From the NCBI GenBank assembly GCA_951406725.2, contig OX597814.1, forward strand, positions 125,612,001-125,676,000: a DNA stretch of 64,000 nt, read 5' to 3'. The stretch comes from Octopus vulgaris (taxonomy: Eukaryota). The stretch's first letter is position 1. Every line of letters begins with the position of its first letter. The notes beneath the pieces were generated by a model. That model searched no databases. It worked only from the letters and a program-made list of their open reading frames with translations, and was not told where the DNA came from. Made by a program: the position numbers and the translations under genes. Below are positions 4,194-64,000 of this stretch, piece after piece.

Positions 4194-4920
4194 ATATATA
4201 TTGTATATTATTTTAGCAAAAACCTCACCCTACAGAGGAAAGTAATATCTTGTTGACATTTTTGGACAGCTGCTGATCATATGCGTAAAGTTTTCCACAA
4301 TTAGTTCATATAAATCAGAATTTTCGGAAGCATCTTGATGGTTTAAGAACTTCGCAGTGTTTTTTGTTCGTGATACTTAGCAGCCATCATCTGCTTTTGG
4401 ATTACGAAAGTATAACCTTTGAACTGTGACACCATGTAACGGCCACGACTCCAAGAGAGGCTACACTTCCTGTCGACTGGCATATGGGAACACTATTAGT
4501 ACAATGTTTCGCTTCCAGGATTTTTTATAAGAGGAGAAAGGATATCGCTTATGACCCTTTTAGGGGTTTCATAACTGGTGGAAGGAAAGGAGGAAGTTAT
4601 CTTCAGATTAGAAATCTGACTCGAAATGTCTACCACTGAACAATAGGAAAGGGTCATTTGACGGGCTTCCACGGAGTTTCTCTCAATTTAATTTCACTGA
4701 TAAGGCTTTGGTCAACGCAAAGCTATAGTTCAAGACATTTTCTTATAGTAGAGCCTTGTGGGATTGAACCTGCAAATTAAACTTCTTAACTGCACAGCCA
4801 TGCTTGTACCCGTGATGTTTGTTCGTTCAGTAGTTTTGGTGGCACATGAAACATCTGCTTTTTCAAGAGTTCTCTCCTATTTCTTTAGATATGTATGTAC
4901 GAATATTTAGCATGTATGTA

Positions 4921-8375: not shown

Positions 8376-8410
8376 TATATATATATATATATATATATAG
8401 ATATATATAG

Positions 8411-8559: not shown

Positions 8560-8747
8560 CTATATATATATATACATATATATATATGAGAAAGTTGGTG
8601 TGTGAAAGCACGTGGTTGAATATATAGAAAATAGTAAAAAATGAAAAAACTACAGAAGGCTTGTTTTAAAAGGTAAAAAAATATATATTTGAGTCATTAT
8701 GTCTGAAGAATGTTATAATTTTTTTTCATACAATGACATAGTTTTTG

Positions 8748-8787
8748 AAGAAATGACCGGTTTCGCGTTCAGCTTTTCAAATTTCTT
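8748..8787 (-). ncRNA. Minimal type I hammerhead ribozyme, U3:A8 core variant
   Basis: Minus strand: AAGAAAU UUGAAAA GC-UGAAC-GC GAAA CCG GUC AUUUCUU; 7-bp helix I, palindromic helix III ACCGGU. Confidence 0.7.
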
Positions 8788-9144
8788 ACATCGTTATGTT
8801 TACGTTGAGAAGTGTGAAGAAAGAGTTCCAGATAAGGGGAGGTAATAAGTGATTTCTTCCGGTGTAAGGGAGATAATCGCTTAATACTTTTTGCCTTTTT
8901 TTTTGGAGTGAGTTTCTCTGTATAAGAATGTTGGAATGGTTCAGTTTGGGCTTGTATTTTTCAATGAAGAATGTTTTCTTGTTTAGTCTAATTTGTGTTG
9001 GTGTTCCGATAGCACATTGGTAAAATGGAAAGATTAAAAATTGTGGTAGTAGTTGCTTTGCGCATTTCTCAATGTGCTCACTAAAGGGTATCATTCTGTA
9101 TTCAACTCTTTCTTCACACTTCTCAACGTAAACATAACGATGTA

Positions 9145-9182
9145 AGAAATTTGAAAAGCTAAACGCGAAACCGGTCATTTCT
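9145..9182 (+). ncRNA. Minimal type I hammerhead ribozyme, U3:A8 core variant (inverted copy)
   Basis: AGAAAT TTGAAAA GC-TAAAC-GC GAAA CCG GTC ATTTCT. Confidence 0.7.
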
Positions 9183-9330
9183 CCAAAAATTATGTCATTG
9201 TATGAAAAAAATTTATAACATTCTTCAGACATAATGACTCAAATATATATTTTTTAACCTTTTAAAACAAGCCTTCTGTAGTTTTTTCACCTTTTACTAT
9301 TTTCTATATATATATATATATATATATACT

Positions 9331-11391: not shown

Positions 11392-11397
<6 letters not shown>

Positions 11398-12534
11398 AAG
11401 TTTGAATTGTTTCCAAAGGAATTTTTGTCCATTCTTCAGCTAAAACAGCCTCCAGCTCTTGTAGTGATGATGGTGGAGGATATCGACTCCTTACTTGTGT
11501 TTCTAAAATGCACCATAAATGTTCAATAATATTGAGATTTGGGGACTGTGAAGGCCAGATAAGATGTTCAACTTCACTAGAGTGTTCTTCGTGCCGTTCA
11601 GTGACAACTTTAGCTGTGTGAATTGGTGCATTATCATCCTGAAAGATTGCGTTTCCTTCCGGAAACAGTTCCGCAACTGTAGGATGAATTTGATCTGATG
11701 AAATGCTTAGTCTTAACTATTAATTCTTCCATGAAGGGGCCGGCGGATTTCAAAAATATAGCCCCCCAGATCATCACAGATCCTCCTCCATGTTTAACAG
11801 TTGAAAGAAGACAGTCTGGGTCAAATGCTTCTTTTGGCTGTCTCCTGACGTATGCTTGGCCGTTGGTTGGAAATAAGGTAAAGGATGACTCATTCGAGAA
11901 AATAACATTCTTCCACTGCTCTAGGGACCAATTCTGTAGGTTTTTACTCCACTCTAAAAGCTTTGCAACGTTTGTTTTTGAAAGTAGTGATTTTCTGACT
12001 ACAGCCCTCCTGTAAAATCCGGCTCTGTGCAGCTCCCGGCGAACATTTTTTTGTGGAAACTGGGTTCTCGAGGTGGTCATTAAGCTCTACAGTAATTTTG
12101 GGAGTACTTTTGTGATCCTTTCTATCAATTCGTGTAAGAGTCCGACGGTCCCTTTCAGAAAGATTTGGTTTTCTTCCGGAGTTTTATTTCGGCGAGGAGG
12201 TTTTTCCCTCTTTCTCAAAGGTTGTCATTACTTTCGTGACAGTACTTTCTGATACACCAAACATTCCGGCTGTTTTCGTAACGCTAGCGCCTGCCATACG
12301 AGCACCGACAATTTGACCTCTTTGTAAGTCCGATAGATCTGTCATTTTAATGAATTTTTATTACCTTTTTCTGATGATATCTGAAAAGAAACAGCAATTG
12401 TTGCAAAAGATATTAAGCAACACTAATAATAAATAAAAAAAACATAAAATAAACAAGCTTTTGACGGTTTTATAGATATTTCAAAATTTTGATGCTATGA
12501 TGCTGGGTGTTTCCATTATTTTGTCCAACCCCTG
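11392..12534 (-). mobile_element. Tc1-like (DD34E) transposon, 3'-truncated, transposase pseudogene
   Basis: 5' TIR CAGGGGTTGGACAAAATAATGGAAACACC next to TA. ATG at 12345: MTDLSDLQRGQIVGARMAG; FSNES, KHGGGSVMIWG, QDDNAPIH, SPNLNIIE; stops and frameshifts. Confidence 0.92.
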
Positions 12535-16110: not shown

Positions 16111-16526
16111 ATAAAGCAGTTGTATACTGTCAACTTAACGTGACAGTCCCATAAAGGGAACCACACCACCGCTATTTATCCCTAGGAAACATCAACGCTT
16201 CCTGTCTGCCTTGACACATTTCCTGTGTCCTTATGTTTACAAAGGGGAGACAAGCACCCCCATCCAACTAAGTCTGCATCCAGAGACATGTTTCTGAGTC
16301 TTGCTCGTCATCAGTCTGGAGTAGTATGGCTTGCTAGCTGGCTGCAGATACCCGTCTGCAGCCAGCTAGCTGGATGGGGGTGCTTGTCTCCCCTTTGTAA
16401 ACATAAGGACACAGGAAATGTGTCAAGGCCGACAGAAAGCGTTGATGCTTCCTAGGGCTAAATAGCGGGGGTGTGATTCACTTTATGGGACTGTCACGTT
16501 AAGTTGACAGTATACAACTGCTTTAT
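16111..16526. mobile_element. Fold-back element (PLE pLTR-like) with hammerhead in the spacer
   Basis: ~155-bp inverted arms 16111-16270 / ~16368-16526; inner 16-bp hairpin 16333-16370. Confidence 0.85.
16279..16320 (-). ncRNA. Minimal type I hammerhead ribozyme
   Basis: Minus strand: UCCAGA CUGAUGA c-GAG-caaga-CUC-a GAAA CAU GUC UCUGGA; canonical core, 6-bp helix I, palindromic helix III ACAUGU. Confidence 0.85.
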
Positions 16527-17663: not shown

Positions 17664-17699
<36 letters not shown>

Positions 17700-18058
17700 A
17701 GTATATTTGCCACCTATATATATATACGACAGTTTCCGCCTACCAAATCCACTCACAAGGCTTTTGTCGGCTCGAGGCTATAGTTGAAGACACTCGCCCG
17801 AAGTTCCACGCAGTGGCAGTGGGACTGAACCCGGAACCATGTGGTTGGTAAGCAAGCTTCTTACCACACACCCACTCCTGTGTATGTATGTATGTATGTA
17901 TGTATGTATTTATATTATTGAAGCCGAAAAAGTTCACAAACCGTTATTCTGAGTTTCACGCAACCATTCATTACTGAGCACTGATAATTCAGACTAATAC
18001 ATATGCGCCTGCGCCTGCGCGTGTATGTGTGTATGTGTGTGTATGTGTGTATGTGTGT

Positions 18059-22567: not shown

Positions 22568-22622
<55 letters not shown>

Positions 22623-22834
22623 GACGTGCTTCTTTCAGTTTCCGCCCACCAAATCTCCTCACAAGACTTTGATCGGCTCGAGGCTATAGTAGAAGACACT
22701 TGCCCAAGGTGCCGCACAGTGGGACTGAACCCGAAACCACGTGGTTGGTAAGCAAGCTACTTACTACACAACCGCTCCTGCACCATGATGTATATTGCAG
22801 TTATGGTTAGTCCATATTACTCGGTAAGAAGCAT

Positions 22835-24413: not shown

Positions 24414-25041
24414 CGTGCTTTTCTCTCATAACGTACTTAACTATCTGTACAATAGAACAACCCAAAATAGAATCAACAACTAACAATGAAAAATAATTAA
24501 AATAAATAGACTAATTTTATAAATTTTATAAATTCCAACGCTCCTACTGTGTTATTTCTTAGGTGGACCAGAGTTCAAACGCTTATAAACTGTAACTATT
24601 TTAAAATTTAATAAAATATTTGATCTCTTTCAAAAAACACTTACGTTATACATTCTTAAAATTCTTCACTGCAAACACAATTACCCTAATATTACCAAGC
24701 GAATTCGATGAGTTGTTATAACATTCCAGTCCATTCCTAAACAATCAATCGAAACTTTCGTTCGTTCAAATAATTATTAAACTACACCCACATCTTTAAC
24801 TCTTTCGAAATACAGTAATCCCCTCGACTATCGCGGGTGTGACGTTCCAAAACACACCGTGATAGGTGAAAATCCGTGAAGTAGAAACAATACTGTACTG
24901 TTAGCTTGCTTACCAACCACATAGTTCCAGGTTCAGTCCCACTGCGTAGCACCTTGGGCAAGTGTCTTCTATTATAGCCTCGGGCCGACCAAAGCCTTGT
25001 GAGTGGATTTAGTAGACGGAAACTGAAAGAAGCCCGTTGTA

Positions 25042-25087
<46 letters not shown>

Positions 25088-25169
25088 TCCCGGGTTGATT
25101 CGGGGTTAACCACAGTAAGTAAGGTACTCAATACATAGCAGAGTAAAATTAATTTATTATATAGAAGGA

Positions 25170-25218
25170 GCTTCTACAGGACTAGTACTGTTTCATTCAA
25201 GAGAAATCTTCAGGAAGC
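25170..25218 (-). ncRNA. Type I hammerhead ribozyme
   Basis: Minus strand: GCUUC CUGAAGA uUUC-ucuu-GAAu GAAA CAG-uacuaguc-CU GUA GAAGC. Confidence 0.85.
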
Positions 25219-25253
25219 AGGACTAGTACTGTTTCATTCAAGAGAAATCTTCA

Positions 25254-25307
25254 GGAGCTTCCTGAAGATTTCTCTTGAATGAAACAGTACTAGTCCTGTA
25301 GAACTCC
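25254..25307 (+). ncRNA. Type I hammerhead ribozyme (inverted copy, 1-nt deletion in helix I)
   Basis: GGAGCTTC CTGAAGA TTTCTCTTGAAT GAAA CAGTACTAGTCCT GTA GAACTCC. Confidence 0.8.
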
Positions 25308-25316
25308 TTCTATATA

Positions 25317-25361
<45 letters not shown>

Positions 25362-26686
25362 TGTATGTATGTATGTATGTATGTATGTATGTATGTATGT
25401 ATGTATGTATGTATGTGTGTATGTTTGTGTGTCTGTGTTTGTTCCCCCAGCATCGCTTGACAACCGATGCTGGTGTATTTACGTCCCCGTAACTTAGCGG
25501 TTCGGCAAAAGAGACCGAGAGAATAAGTACTAGGCTTACAAAGAATAAGTCCTGGGGTCGATTTGCTCGACTAAAGGCGGTGCTCCTGCATGGCCGCAGT
25601 CAAATGACTGAAACAAGTAAAAGAGTAAAGAATTATTTTATTATAAAAGCAAAACAACACCAGAGAGGAATCGACGTAAGTTTAAATAATAAACCGCGAT
25701 AGGTGAACCGCGATATGGCGAGTGATTACTGTCGAGCTATACAGTATCGTTACCATGCAATATATTGCACCCTATATTGAGTCAACAGACTCTGATTTGG
25801 AAATTAGTTCACGGTGTGTTAAAAGCAGTTTTGGTCTTTTTCTTTTTAAGTGGATTAATAAAGATTAGATATACTCTGCTTTGGAATTGTATTAATTTGT
25901 ACCTGCTTCTGTCAAATAAACCATGATCTTTACCTTTCCTCATTTAATTTTTATCTTATAAGTATTATACTGAACACATGGTACATTATGATATATTTTA
26001 AGAATGCTAACTGGATTAATAAATATCAAACAACCCAAGCTTTAAAAGTGTATTAATTCCAATCCGTTAAATACGATTTCACTCTTTACTGTTCATAGTT
26101 TATTGTATACTTTAAGTATACATTTAGACTGTGTCCACAAAAAGCGGAAAATCCAAAAATCTGAGATACCCGGTCCCAAGTTTGGCAGATGATTTTGTCC
26201 GGTCTTGTATAAGTAAATCATTCTGATTCCCATTATTGTGACCTTGAAGAGTTCGTAAGAGCTGAATAATCGTACATTTATAGCAGTCAACACTATATTA
26301 TTTATCCTTCGTTCGCTTAACGCCTGTTTTTCGAAGCTGGATAAGGAGTGACTTTGAAGCTGGATTTTACGAGCAGATTCTCTACCTGTCGACAACCATC
26401 ACTTGTTATGTTTTTCAAGTGAAGGATTTATATATTCTACAGGTCTTCGAAAGAACAGAGTGACTGGTTGCAATGTTAATAAGGAATGTAACCATCACTG
26501 CTGTTTCACTCAAACGGTGATAAATGGAACATGAGCATACACTTGTATTCGTATGCACCGCCCTACACACAAACATACGTATATAAATACATACATACAT
26601 ATCTTACATCTATTTTCTTTCCTCCATTTCACTCTCTATTTGTATCACATCGAAACTAACTATGACTTATTTTTTCCTCTCACACC

Positions 26687-33655: not shown

Positions 33656-33658
33656 TGT

Positions 33659-33887
33659 GGAGGCGCAATGGCCTAGTGGTTAGGGCAGCGGACTTGCGGT
33701 CGGAGGATCGCGGTTTCGATTCCCAGACCGGGCGTTGTGTGTGTTTATTGAGCGAAAAAAACACCTAAAAGCTCCACGAGGCTCCGGCAGGAGGTGGTGA
33801 TCCCTGCTGTACTCTTTCACCACTCTAAAGGCGGTGCTCCAGCATGGCCGCAGTCAAATGACTGAAACAAGTACAAAAAAAAAAAAA
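33659..33887 (+). mobile_element. Chimeric SINE: family C head plus family A tail
   Basis: GGAGGCGCAATGGCCTAGTGGTTAGGGCAGCGGAC...TTTCACCAC joined to CTAAAGGCGGTGCTCCAGCATGGCCGCAGTCAAATGACTGAAAC. Confidence 0.85.
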
Positions 33888-33906
33888 TACATACATACAC
33901 ACACAT

Positions 33907-33948
<42 letters not shown>

Positions 33949-34219
33949 GTAGGTTATGAGAGGTTATGGTGTCAAAAAGACCCAAAGGTGTCAGGTAATG
34001 CTGAGTAAGTGCTATGGACAGACTACAGTTAAGCTCCAGGTTCGGTGATTATGTGAATGAGGTGTCCAACGTAGAAAAAGTTAACAGAATGAGATAAAAA
34101 ATCCAAGGCTGTGAAAGATTTCAGAACATTTATAAAGAGAAGGTCTTACAGCTGTTTCCAGGATCTTTTATATATCCCGGAAACAGCTGTAAGACCTTCT
34201 CTTTATAAATGTTCTGGAA
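33949..34219. mobile_element. Fold-back PLE pLTR remnant with half-hammerheads
   Basis: Begins after (TA)n; arms ~34119-34164 / 34174-34219, each with GAAACAGCTGTAAGAC; CUGANGA lost at the fold. Confidence 0.75.
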
Positions 34220-35998: not shown

Positions 35999-36410
35999 AT
36001 TATTATCAAGTAAGAAAACAGAGAGATCTAATGGGTACAAATTAATTTAATTAATTAACACATTCATCTACAATTCTTTCATTTGACAAACAAAATTAAA
36101 ATTACGAAACATATAAATCTATAATTTTGCATTCATTTTAAATGACTTGTATGGAAACTCATCAGGGTATAAATAAACATGACTATATATTCTGAATATT
36201 CCAAACGGATTATAATGTAATCTTTGTATTGTCCTTTGTACACCCGAATGATTTTCCATACAAGTTATTTGAAATGCAAAATCATATATTTATATGTTTT
36301 GTAGTTTCAATTTTGTTTGTGAAATGAAAGAATTGTAGGTGAATATGTTGATTAATTAATTAATTAATTTGTATCCATTAGATCTCTCTGTTTTCTAACT
36401 CGATAATAAT
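35999..36410. mobile_element. Older fold-back element with degenerate long-helix-II hammerheads
   Basis: ~175-bp imperfect inverted arms. Minus 36065-36170: ACC CTGATGA...GAAA GAATT GTA GATG. Plus 36241-36341: CACC CGAATGA...GAAA GAATT GTA GGTG. Confidence 0.75.
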
Positions 36411-40531: not shown

Positions 40532-40552
40532 ACGTTTTCTATTCCTGAGCGA

Positions 40553-40815
40553 TCTTTCAGGATAATAATGCGCCAATTCACATAGCTAAAGTTGTTACTG
40601 AATAGCACGAGGAACATTCTAGTGAAGTTGAACATTTTATCTGGCCACCACAGTCCCCAGATCTCAATATTATTGAACAATAATGTTACATTTTAGAAAA
40701 ACAAGTAAGGAGCTGATATACTCCACCATCATCACTACAAGAACTGGAGATTGTTTTAGCTGAAGACTGGACAAAATGTATTTTGGAAACAATTCAAACT
40801 TTTTCCACGAGTCCA
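40553..40815 (+). pseudogene. Tc1 transposase fragment (same family as 11392-12534)
   Basis: FQDNNAPIH..WPPQSPDLNIIE; aligns to reverse complement of ~11395-11650. Confidence 0.85.
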
Positions 40816-49577: not shown

Positions 49578-50471
49578 CGGAGAAATAATTTTAATTAGTC
49601 AATGGCATGACTTAATGTATGCAAGAAAGTTTGTTGTTTGAGAAGAAATGTGTTTCCGTTTTTCCTTCCTGTCTTCTAGTATAATTTTCATATCTCGGGG
49701 GCTTTCAGGGATATTAGACCGAACCCTATTTGCCAGGTATTTTATATTATGGATCCTGAAAGATGAAAAACAAAGGCGACCTCGGCGGTAATTGAACTCA
49801 GAACCGAATGAGTTGTAAAGAAATACTACAGGCAATGTTTTAGCTTCAATACTGATAAAATATTTGGTAACATTTAACCTTAGTCTCATACTCAATTGTT
49901 TATCCCATTAACGTAGCTGTTATTTCTAATACATCAAACAAGAAGACAGCAGATACATTCCTTCAGATAACACTATCGTAATGATTCTCAATCTTTTTGA
50001 CTTCGAAATGCACCGGAGATAAAAGTAACAAAAAAAAAAAAAAAAGTACTAGTGTACGTCACATCGGAAGCTTTTTTTTTTTTTCTTTTTCTTTTTTCAG
50101 TTAATTTAGAAAAATATTTTTTTTAAAAGTAGCATTTATCTCGTTTTCTGAAACATACTTGTAGTTAACACAATTATAAACAACATTTTTCAAGACACTT
50201 CTAGCATTAATATAGGTTTCTCGAACATTTTCAATTGTGTTTTTTTTTTTAAATTCGTAGCACGCCTCCGTTTCCGATGTTGCTTAATGATGCGCCGATG
50301 AGCGCGGTTTGAGAACACTTGCTATACGCTCTTAAAAAAAGGGGGATACGAATTGAACAATGTTGTTTTAAATAAACAAAAAAAAAAAAAAAATAGATGT
50401 GACAGTCACTGTTGTAACACATTTGATTATGCAACTGTTCAGTCAGGGGTGGCCTGGAACAACAACTCTAG

Positions 50472-50665
50472 TGGAAGCGCAATGGGTCAGTGGTTAGGGC
50501 AGTGGACTCGCAGTCGTAAGAACGCGGTTTCTATTCTCAGACTGGGCATTGTGCGTGTTTATTTAGCAAAAACACCTAAGCTCCACGAAGCTCCGGCGGG
50601 TGGGGTCGGGGTGAACCCATCTGTACTCTTTCACCATAACTTTCTCTCGCTCTTTCTTCCTACTT
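50472..50665 (+). mobile_element. SINE family C head
   Basis: Matches the heads at 33659 and 55021. Confidence 0.8.
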
Positions 50666-54960: not shown

Positions 54961-55020
54961 ACATTTTGCTGCACAAAATACCAGTTTTATTTGATTGTTG
55001 CCGCTTATTTGTTCTTTAGT

Positions 55021-55522
55021 GGATGCGCAATAGCCCAGTGGTTAGGGCAGTGGAATCGCGGTCGTAGGATCGCGGTTTCGATTCCCAGACCGGGCATTTT
55101 GAGTGTTTATTGAGCGAAAACACCTAAAGCTCCACGAGGCTCCGGCAGTGGGTGGTGGTGAACCCTGCTGTACTCTTTCACCACAACTTTCTCTCACTCT
55201 TTCTTCCTGTACCTGTTGTACCTGTATTTCAAAGGGCCAGCCTTGTCACACTCTGTGTCATGCTGAATCTCCCCGAGAACTATGTTAAGGGTACGTGTCT
55301 GTGGAGTGCTCAGCCATCTGCACGTTAATAAATGAGCTGCGACGTCACTGGTACCAAGCTGTATCGGCCTTTGCCTTTCCCTTGGATAACATCGGTGGCG
55401 TGGAGAGGGGAGGCTGGTATGCGTGGGCGACTGCTGGTCTTCCATAAACAATCTTGCCCAGACTTGTGCCTCGGAAGGTAACTTTCTGGGTGCAATCCCA
55501 TGGTCATTCACGACCAAAGGGT
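55021..55522 (+). mobile_element. SINE family C head/body apparently joined to another repeat 3' part
   Basis: tRNA-like head GGATGCGCAATAGCCCAGTGGTTAGGGCAG; possible junction near 55330. Confidence 0.7.
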
Positions 55523-63359: not shown

Positions 63360-63425
<66 letters not shown>

Positions 63426-64000
63426 GGTTAAGTAATTGAGATTCAAGTGAATTCTAAAGAATTCACATGAATATGGTCCTTAACTAGGATGCACCGGAAA
63501 TCTATATGGTGTTAACCATACGACAAGTGGGGTGATTACAAATAGGAAAAAAGCAACAAGAATGGATTAAAATCTCGGTACGATCGTTTCGTACGAGGAC
63601 ATCTTTAATAAGCTACAAAAAATGCAGTGATATGATAGTCACTTTGCTTTTACTCAGACTTTCCTCTACATGATATGGCAGTCACTTTGCCTCTTACTCG
63701 GATTTTCAGAAATTTTGCATGACTGTATCCGAAAATTTCTTCACACAACTTGATTAAAAATTCAATATGAGCTATATGTAGACATGCACAAATTCTGTAA
63801 GTTTAAAACCTTTCATCGGATCTCCATGAATCGAACATTCTTCAATGCAGTTAATCTTACAACCTCTTTTGTATCTACCCCTTTTGATGTTTGGGAATTC
63901 TCTGATGTTTTTTCGGCTGACGAGTACGAGCCATCTGTATTCACTGCATTTGTAGCTTATTAAAGATGTCCTCGTACGAAACGATCGTACCGAGATTTTA
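63426..64000. mobile_element. Fold-back PLE-like element (runs to window edge)
   Basis: Starts after (TA)n; tail 63426-63567; arm 63568-63630 is the near-exact reverse complement of ~63941-64000. Confidence 0.8.
63912..63994 (+). ncRNA. Type I hammerhead ribozyme with extended helix II
   Basis: TTCGG CTGACGA GTACGAG-(40 nt incl. CATCT/AGATG)-CTCGTAC GAAA CGATC GTA CCGAG; canonical core, palindromic helix III ACGATCGT. Confidence 0.88.

Follow-up and report, generated by a model that had tools for sequence, protein, structure and literature searches.

A probable truncated Penelope-like insertion with hammerhead motifs inside the internal TA tract of an Octopus vulgaris SINE

The locus described here lies in a 64,000-nt stretch of Octopus vulgaris DNA (contig OX597814.1, positions 125,612,001 to 125,676,000 of the forward strand; hereafter the window, to which all positions refer) and is a real but ordinary three-level nest of repeats, the innermost part of which is most likely a truncated Penelope-like insertion. 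From outside to inside, the nest consists of a pair of inverted repeats (24813-24836 and 25708-25731), a SINE copy (24902-25631) and an insert of 240 bp (25083-25322), which splits the internal (TA)n of the SINE and is flanked by TA runs of 35 nt (25048-25082) and 38 nt (25321-25358). The nesting proposed in the initial annotation, a fold-back within a SINE within a pogo-like MITE, is therefore real at its two inner levels, while the MITE is the weakest level, the terminal inverted repeats (TIRs) giving it limited support. We consider it very probable that the insert represents a stub from the 3' terminus (pseudo-LTR) of a Penelope-like element (PLE) with an endonuclease, either autonomous or non-autonomous. 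As it stands, the locus is of little importance, nested repeats being routine and fold-backs that bear hammerhead ribozyme (HHR) motifs being a published signature of truncated PLE insertions. The features of the nest, and those of three further fold-backs found in the window, are collected in Table 1.

Table 1. Coordinates of the nested locus and of the other HHR fold-backs of the window.
Feature	Positions	Strand	Remarks
Left side of a putative pogo/Tigger-like MITE: TA dinucleotide, TIR (24813-24836) and body	24811-24901	+	TIR starts CAGTA; single copy in the window
SINE 5' half; initial ~25 nt, including the A-box-like motif, missing; B-box-like motif 24930-24940	24902-25047	+	From the family alignment and box consensus patterns
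Left part of the SINE-internal (TA)n target	25048-25082	.	
69-nt one-sided extension, putative 3' end of the inserted element; hairpin 25083-25113 with A/C-rich loop	25083-25151	-	
Left inverted arm with complete type I HHR 25170-25218; core starts at 25213; predicted cleavage after A 25175	25152-25218	-	
Partial tandem HHR copy: core starting at 25254, helix II and most of helix III	25218-25256	-	Stops 2-3 nt short of the predicted cleavage site
Inverted 5'-truncated copy: right arm 25257-25322, HHR 25254-25307, core 25262-25268, predicted cleavage after 25300	25254-25322	+	
Right part of the (TA)n target, then (TATG)n of the SINE	25321-25436	.	
SINE 3' half and A-rich repeat tail	25425-25631	+	
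Right side of the putative MITE: body and TIR (25708-25731)	25632-25731	+	TC, not TA, 3' of it
PLE remnant between two TA tracts, inverted arms of ~200 bp, HHR on both strands	8588-9304	-	Comparison locus
Fold-back bearing one HHR (H17 at 16285); arms of 160 bp with 8 mismatches	16111-16526	-	Outside TA tracts
Insert beside (TA)30, outside any copy of the focal SINE family; runs off the window	63425-64000	+	

The insert had been described as consisting largely of hammerhead copies, one complete and one partial on the minus strand and one on the plus strand, and this description was confirmed, two of the three copies being complete. The nucleotide H17 falls at 25175 in the complete minus-strand motif and at 25300 in the plus-strand motif, which lacks one G and has, in consequence, a bulge in helix I; in the partial copy the core and helix II are retained, and the sequence breaks off ahead of the cleavage triplet. 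The focal HHR has the CUGANGA and GAAA boxes and an NUH triplet around helices I-III, with a near-palindromic helix III, self-complementary at 14 of its 16 positions. A U.U replaces G10.1-C11.1, and helix II counts only 3 pairs; a few exceptions to the G10.1-C11.1 consensus are listed in the available part of the supplement of PMC4209133. The tandem duplication has a period of 41 nt and its copies are identical over 39 nt, and the inverted arms (25152-25218 and 25257-25322, 67 bp) agree in 66 of 67 columns, the remaining one being an indel. Read on the minus strand, the insert runs through the inverted copy, the partial copy and the complete copy, and then continues for 92 nt to the TA tract; of these 92 nt, counted from the HHR cleavage site, 69 are present on one side only. 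Two candidates were rejected: an alternative cleavage register at GUC would require, by inspection, a 5-nt bulge in helix I, and the partial copy, considered as an active ribozyme, is without a valid helix I or NUH triplet and was missed by both of the descriptors used.

The first of these HHR descriptors found 2 motifs in the window, 1 of them in the focal insert, compared with a mean of 0.13 in 30 shuffles. The second one, widened after the motifs had been seen, found 6 in the window, of which 2 lie in the focal insert, compared with a mean of 0.22 and a maximum of 2 in 50 dinucleotide shuffles. When the focal motifs were folded in isolation, helices I and III were present in the MFE fold, which was not more stable than those of the shuffles (z-scores of 0.12 and 0.26, not significant). 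Rfam gave no match over the window at gathering score and, over the focal locus at E up to 10, 47 matches that were miRNA-like hairpins or simple-repeat noise, with no hammerhead among them; the isolated focal minus-strand motif had no Rfam match, the model Hammerhead_1 (RF00163) included.

The assignment of the insert to the PLEs is based on architecture, because the insert holds no coding remnant, its six-frame translation being full of stops, and a tblastn search with the three homologous proteins described below for the 8.6-kb locus gave no match in it. The stub is so short that the absence of an ORF remnant is expected. A second copy of the insert was not found within the 64-kb window. 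In the available text of Craig et al. (PMC8557442), PLE insertions are partial tandems truncated at the 5' end, next to which lies an inverted copy that is likewise 5'-truncated; they show a bias towards microsatellites and have an HHR in the pLTR and a tail of 30-40 bp that is often present at one end only. With the 5'-truncated insertions of EN+ PLEs described in the text and the legend of Fig. 2 of that paper (Penelope/Poseidon, Neptune, Nematis, Hydra), as far as the available part goes, the focal insert shares the partial tandem joined to an inverted 5'-truncated copy, an extension at one end only, the HHR in the terminal repeat, the microsatellite target and the lack of a discernible target-site duplication. 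It differs from them in that no clade can be assigned without an ORF remnant, in the one-sided extension, which is 69 nt long compared with the published 30-40, and in the tandem piece of 41 nt. The one supplement file of PMC8557442 that was searched contained neither of two 13-nt segments taken from the focal HHR, nor a third taken from the extension.

The motifs themselves point in the same direction. For PLEs, the available sections of Cervera and De la Pena (PMC4209133) report hammerheads whose helix III is palindromic, a variant of the core with U3-A8 and HHRs that occur in pairs on opposite strands, 100-700 bp from each other, and the focal HHR is similar to the Saccoglossus (2) motif in the text of Fig. 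S3 of the same source. The features in common with the type I HHRs of PLEs described there (min-HHR and variants with a short palindromic helix III) are the CUGANGA and GAAA boxes, the NUH triplet, the near-palindromic helix III and the presence of copies on opposite strands, whereas the U.U in place of G10.1-C11.1, the helix II of 3 bp, the longer loop of helix III and the spacing of the copies (~45-90 nt) set the focal insert apart from them. Naiad PLEs, in the parts of PMC8557442 that could be consulted, share the tandem/inverted layout and a preference for (TA)n targets, listed in File S1 for two Octopus families; however, they are without canonical HHRs, while in the focal insert the core is complete and all three helices are present. 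Our literature searches, with most subscription papers outside their coverage, returned no paper on HHR or PLE inserts nested in SINE microsatellites.

A plausible course of the insertion could be the following. The GIY-YIG endonuclease of the element would have nicked the TA tract carried by the SINE family, reverse transcription would have begun inside the RNA, ~92 nt downstream of the site of HHR cleavage, and it would have halted on reaching the 5' boundary of the HHR. Another short piece would then have been joined in tandem and the other end would have been formed by an inverted 5'-truncated copy, the outcome being presumably a dead fragment. In the accessible part of Frangieh et al. (PMC11167929), a purified PLE protein nicks AT-rich DNA and primes internally in an AC-rich stem-loop which, by the numbers of that paper, lies 85-92 nt downstream of the HHR cut site. 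In the focal insert 92 nt lie between the cleavage site and the end, where a hairpin with a loop rich in A and C is located; the other three fold-backs have 154-174 nt, and the A/C-loop hairpin is found at the focal end only.

Since it carries a type I HHR and no coding sequence, the insert could also have come from a non-LTR retrozyme (a tandem repeat without coding sequence that bears a type I HHR), mobilised by a PLE in trans, instead of being a PLE end. These two properties and the link to PLEs are indeed shared with the metazoan non-LTR retrozymes (PMC7229834; bioRxiv 10.64898/2026.07.22.740005, both as far as available), and animal retrozymes are proposed, in the accessible text of the preprint, to derive from PLE pLTRs, the classes intergrading. 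However, retrozymes are head-to-tail units of ~170-400 nt with complete HHRs, according to the available text of PMC7229834, whereas the focal tandem unit is of 41 nt, the second focal HHR is not complete and an inversion dominates the structure, with no array of full 170-400 nt units. A retrozyme origin appears, thus, very improbable to us.

The near-identity of the arms and of the tandem copies raises a different question, namely whether an assembly or library artefact has produced the fold-back or the 41-nt duplication, the tandem and inverted structures of PLEs being known to trouble assemblies (PMC8557442, available text), or whether the duplication arose later by a DNA rearrangement at the centre of a perfect palindrome, where it ends. 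We judge both improbable. Two other fold-backs of the window have diverged arms, with 7 mismatches in 201 positions and 8 in 160, which argues that the class is real in this genome; moreover, the junction between partial and inverted copy would form an 8-nt perfect partner of the 3' strand of helix I, and a duplication at DNA level would presumably give this 8-nt junction only with an extra 1-nt deletion.

The junctions of the insert also offer a lead of their own. The start of each of the three focal copies falls no more than 8 nt upstream of the catalytic core, and the partial copy is cut off 2-3 nt short of the predicted cleavage site, so one may ask whether the junctions record a jump of the PLE reverse transcriptase onto hammerhead-cleaved RNA in vivo. 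The 41-nt piece would in that case be cDNA of the 5' cleavage product of the ribozyme, joined through microhomologies of 1 nt and 3 nt, and the locus would be genomic evidence of in vivo cleavage by a PLE hammerhead feeding the tandem/inverted structure; in vivo cleavage of PLE HHRs and its role are an open question in the available text of PMC8557442. We regard this lead as unlikely. It comes from a single post hoc case, for which chance amounts, as a rough estimate, to ~6% if the end is uniform over the copy; it is not repeated in the other three fold-backs, helix II is degenerate, and a DNA-level duplication at the palindrome centre also explains the end of the partial copy. In vitro, the accessible part of PMC11167929 reports no reads ending at the HHR cut site and no need of cleavage. 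Among the full-text matches listed for the Penelope/hammerhead literature, the term 'template jump' was found only in a paper on R2.

The reading of the focal insert as a truncated PLE insertion can be compared with the three other HHR fold-backs in the window, which are unrelated to each other and to the focal one and none of which lies in a SINE-internal tract; 3 of the 4 adjoin (TA)n. The fold-back at 8588-9304 is laid out like the focal insert; it has arms with 194 matches and 7 mismatches, seen as a repeat at 8682-8827 and 9104-9249, HHRs with the U3-A8 core variant on both strands and a 38-nt one-sided tail. It also contains the final 57 codons of a GIY-YIG endonuclease, and this fragment has identities of 89% and 70% with homologous proteins. 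Three homologues were examined (3 of 5 candidates); they match GIY-YIG with E-values from 1e-4 to 0.014, one of the three at the Pfam cut-off, the longest also matches RVT_1 (E 1e-7), and 2 of the 3 have the CX2-5CxxC linker of Neptune/Nematis PLEs. Pfam, run on the 149-aa frame of the locus, gave 0 families, and the GIY-YIG call is drawn from these homologues. At meaningful E-values, tblastn with the three homologues found in the window the 8.6-kb locus only. The U3-A8 hammerhead core of this fold-back is a rare variant, and its right TA tract abuts the 5' end of another SINE copy.

The fold-back at 16111-16526 shows a small second inversion at its centre, and its site is AT-rich but not a microsatellite. 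In the third one, which runs off the window, a complete HHR (63911-63995, plus strand) is accompanied by an inverted partial copy (63568-63630). This HHR, of type I and with a z-score of -3.27, has a long helix II domain (54 nt) and gave a weak match to Rfam Hammerhead_1, of 21.6 bits (E 0.0025) compared with a gathering score of 34. Four unrelated HHR fold-backs in 64 kb suggest a genome with very many short PLE stubs, which escape both protein-based annotation and the Rfam thresholds, as indicated by the 0 Rfam matches at gathering score. If the junctions of such stubs were mapped genome-wide relative to the predicted cleavage site, HHR cleavage during transposition could be tested.

As for the age of the insertion, which had been called young, the absence of substitutions in the arms (0 of 66; 95% upper bound 4.4%) lends this view weak support, because palindrome arms can be homogenised and the pairwise divergence of SINEs includes subfamily differences. 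At the smallest pairwise divergence of the SINE copies we calculated P = 0.018 and, with the indel counted, P = 0.087. The arms of the other fold-backs have 7/201 (8.6 kb), 8/160 (16 kb) and 0/60 (63 kb) mismatches, and the 8.6-kb and 16-kb fold-backs are probably older, judging from these counts.

The SINE that carries the insert belongs to a family with at least 10 further full or partial copies in the 64-kb window, which presumably resembles octopus SINE families. Both halves of the focal copy continue across the insert as in uninterrupted copies, and its divergence from the 5 other copies compared is 5.9-11.1%. The focal copy starts ~25 nt into the family alignment and the A-box segment of the other copies is missing, suggesting that it was either 5'-truncated on arrival or trimmed later; inspection of its flanks revealed no target-site duplication. 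Based on consensus patterns of the two boxes, its B-box-like motif matches at 9 of 10 positions and no A-box-like motif precedes it, while in 5 of 9 other copies an A-box-like motif (8 of 9 positions) is at the expected place. ARAGORN found 0 tRNA genes, and the head of one intact SINE copy, in which only box-like motifs were seen, had no tRNA match in Rfam. Following the SINE definition in the available text of PMC3531059, the family shares with tRNA-derived SINEs a length below 700 bp, an interspersed distribution (10 copies or more within the 64 kb), a head with motifs resembling the A and B boxes, and a tail of simple repeats; the focal copy differs by the missing A-box segment, and a tRNA origin is without ARAGORN or Rfam support. 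The Penelope and SINE content of coleoid genomes is treated in PMC8967140.

The internal TA tract is built into the family, the longest pure TA run being of at least 15 nt in 5 of the 10 copies checked. Three SINE copies start directly after TA repeats (4195-4208, 8376-8399 and 9305-9328), and from these the SINE itself may prefer (TA)n targets. Two more copies, at 17670-17880 and 22571-22790, break off at the internal microsatellite without an adjacent 3' half; beside the breaks of these 17.7-kb and 22.6-kb copies no HHR core was found. A second interspersed family is present at 33657-33889, 50466-50661 and 55014-55208, and its 33.7-kb copy shares the 3' tail with the focal SINE family.

According to the initial annotation, the microsatellite of the SINE acts as a mobile landing pad. 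This is acceptable in so far as the SINE carries and spreads TA targets, which are of the kind favoured by PLEs (PMC8557442, available text), and nothing beyond that was seen. In particular, an excess of inserts in SINE-internal TA tracts was not observed in the window, where 1 of 7 such tracts and 2 of 20 others are occupied (Fisher p = 1.0), a very small sample with too few tracts to exclude a modest excess. The tracts were counted from 29 merged TA tracts of at least 12 nt, two pairs of which are halves of one split target, giving 27; the SINE-internal ones hold 257 of the 1166 TA bases of the window.

The claim that a Pol III transcript of the SINE would carry a ribozyme found no support, since the A-box segment is missing and the sense HHR is predicted to be fully paired, although the B-box-like motif is intact and the sense strand has no T4 run. 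In RNA of the SINE sense strand the plus-strand HHR follows its own perfect complement, and it is likely to be locked in a duplex in the context of the locus, as predicted by folding: the probability of helix II is ~1e-15 for all five 3' ends tested, compared with 0.09 for the isolated plus-strand HHR, in which helices I and III reach 0.75. On the antisense strand, helix II of the complete copy has a probability of at most 1.6e-7 at equilibrium, a type of calculation that leaves room for a kinetic window on this strand. The missing G10.1-C11.1 pair, the failure of Rfam to detect the motif and an isolated fold no more stable than shuffles also speak against the claim, and the min-HHRs of PLEs cleave poorly in vitro, in the available text of PMC4209133. 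The full model, which combines a SINE serving as a dedicated mobile landing pad with Pol III transcription of the composite into a SINE RNA that bears a ribozyme, could appeal to the TA tract built into the family, to the B-box-like motif and to the sense strand free of T4 runs; the absent A-box segment, the helix II probabilities on both strands, the tract counts and the presence of an insert in 0 of the other SINE copies read make it extremely improbable.

The outer layer is probably an old MITE. Its TIRs match at 21 of 23 aligned positions in a local alignment with 2 gaps and 2 mismatches, a score equalled by 2 of 2000 shuffles and by 9 of 1144 random pairs from the window; among control pairs of SINE flanks, 1 of 6 scores one point below the focal pair. 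In the available parts of PMC3845634 (Table 1) the TIRs of pogo_NA MITEs begin with CAGTA, and the TIRs of some hAT MITEs likewise begin with CAGT, while PMC9219625, as far as accessible, gives for Tigger TIRs a length comparable to the 24 bp of the focal ones. The likeness to the pogo/Tigger-derived MITEs of these two sources consists in the ~24-bp TIRs starting with CAGTA, in the TA on one side, 5' of the left TIR, and in the noncoding body; the differences are the TC that flanks the right TIR, the mere 188 bp remaining and the single copy, a second one not having been found within the 64-kb window. The order of events was MITE, then SINE, then PLE, the first of these steps preceding the second probably.

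Some other repeats were noted in the window. Two palindromes, at 35999-36410 and 34119-34219, have no detected HHR, and the first looks like an AT-rich MITE. A fragment of a mariner transposase is located at 1089-1556 (Pfam HTH_48, E 1e-20). The frames at ~11.2-12.1, 28.3-28.8, 33.0-33.4, 48.2-48.7 and 59.0-59.4 kb are, as we assume, transposase-like and LINE-like; Pfam, run on three of them, gave no informative match. A dispersed repeat of 254 bp (11397-11650 and 40549-40802, 89% identity) overlaps the transposase-like frame at 11 kb.
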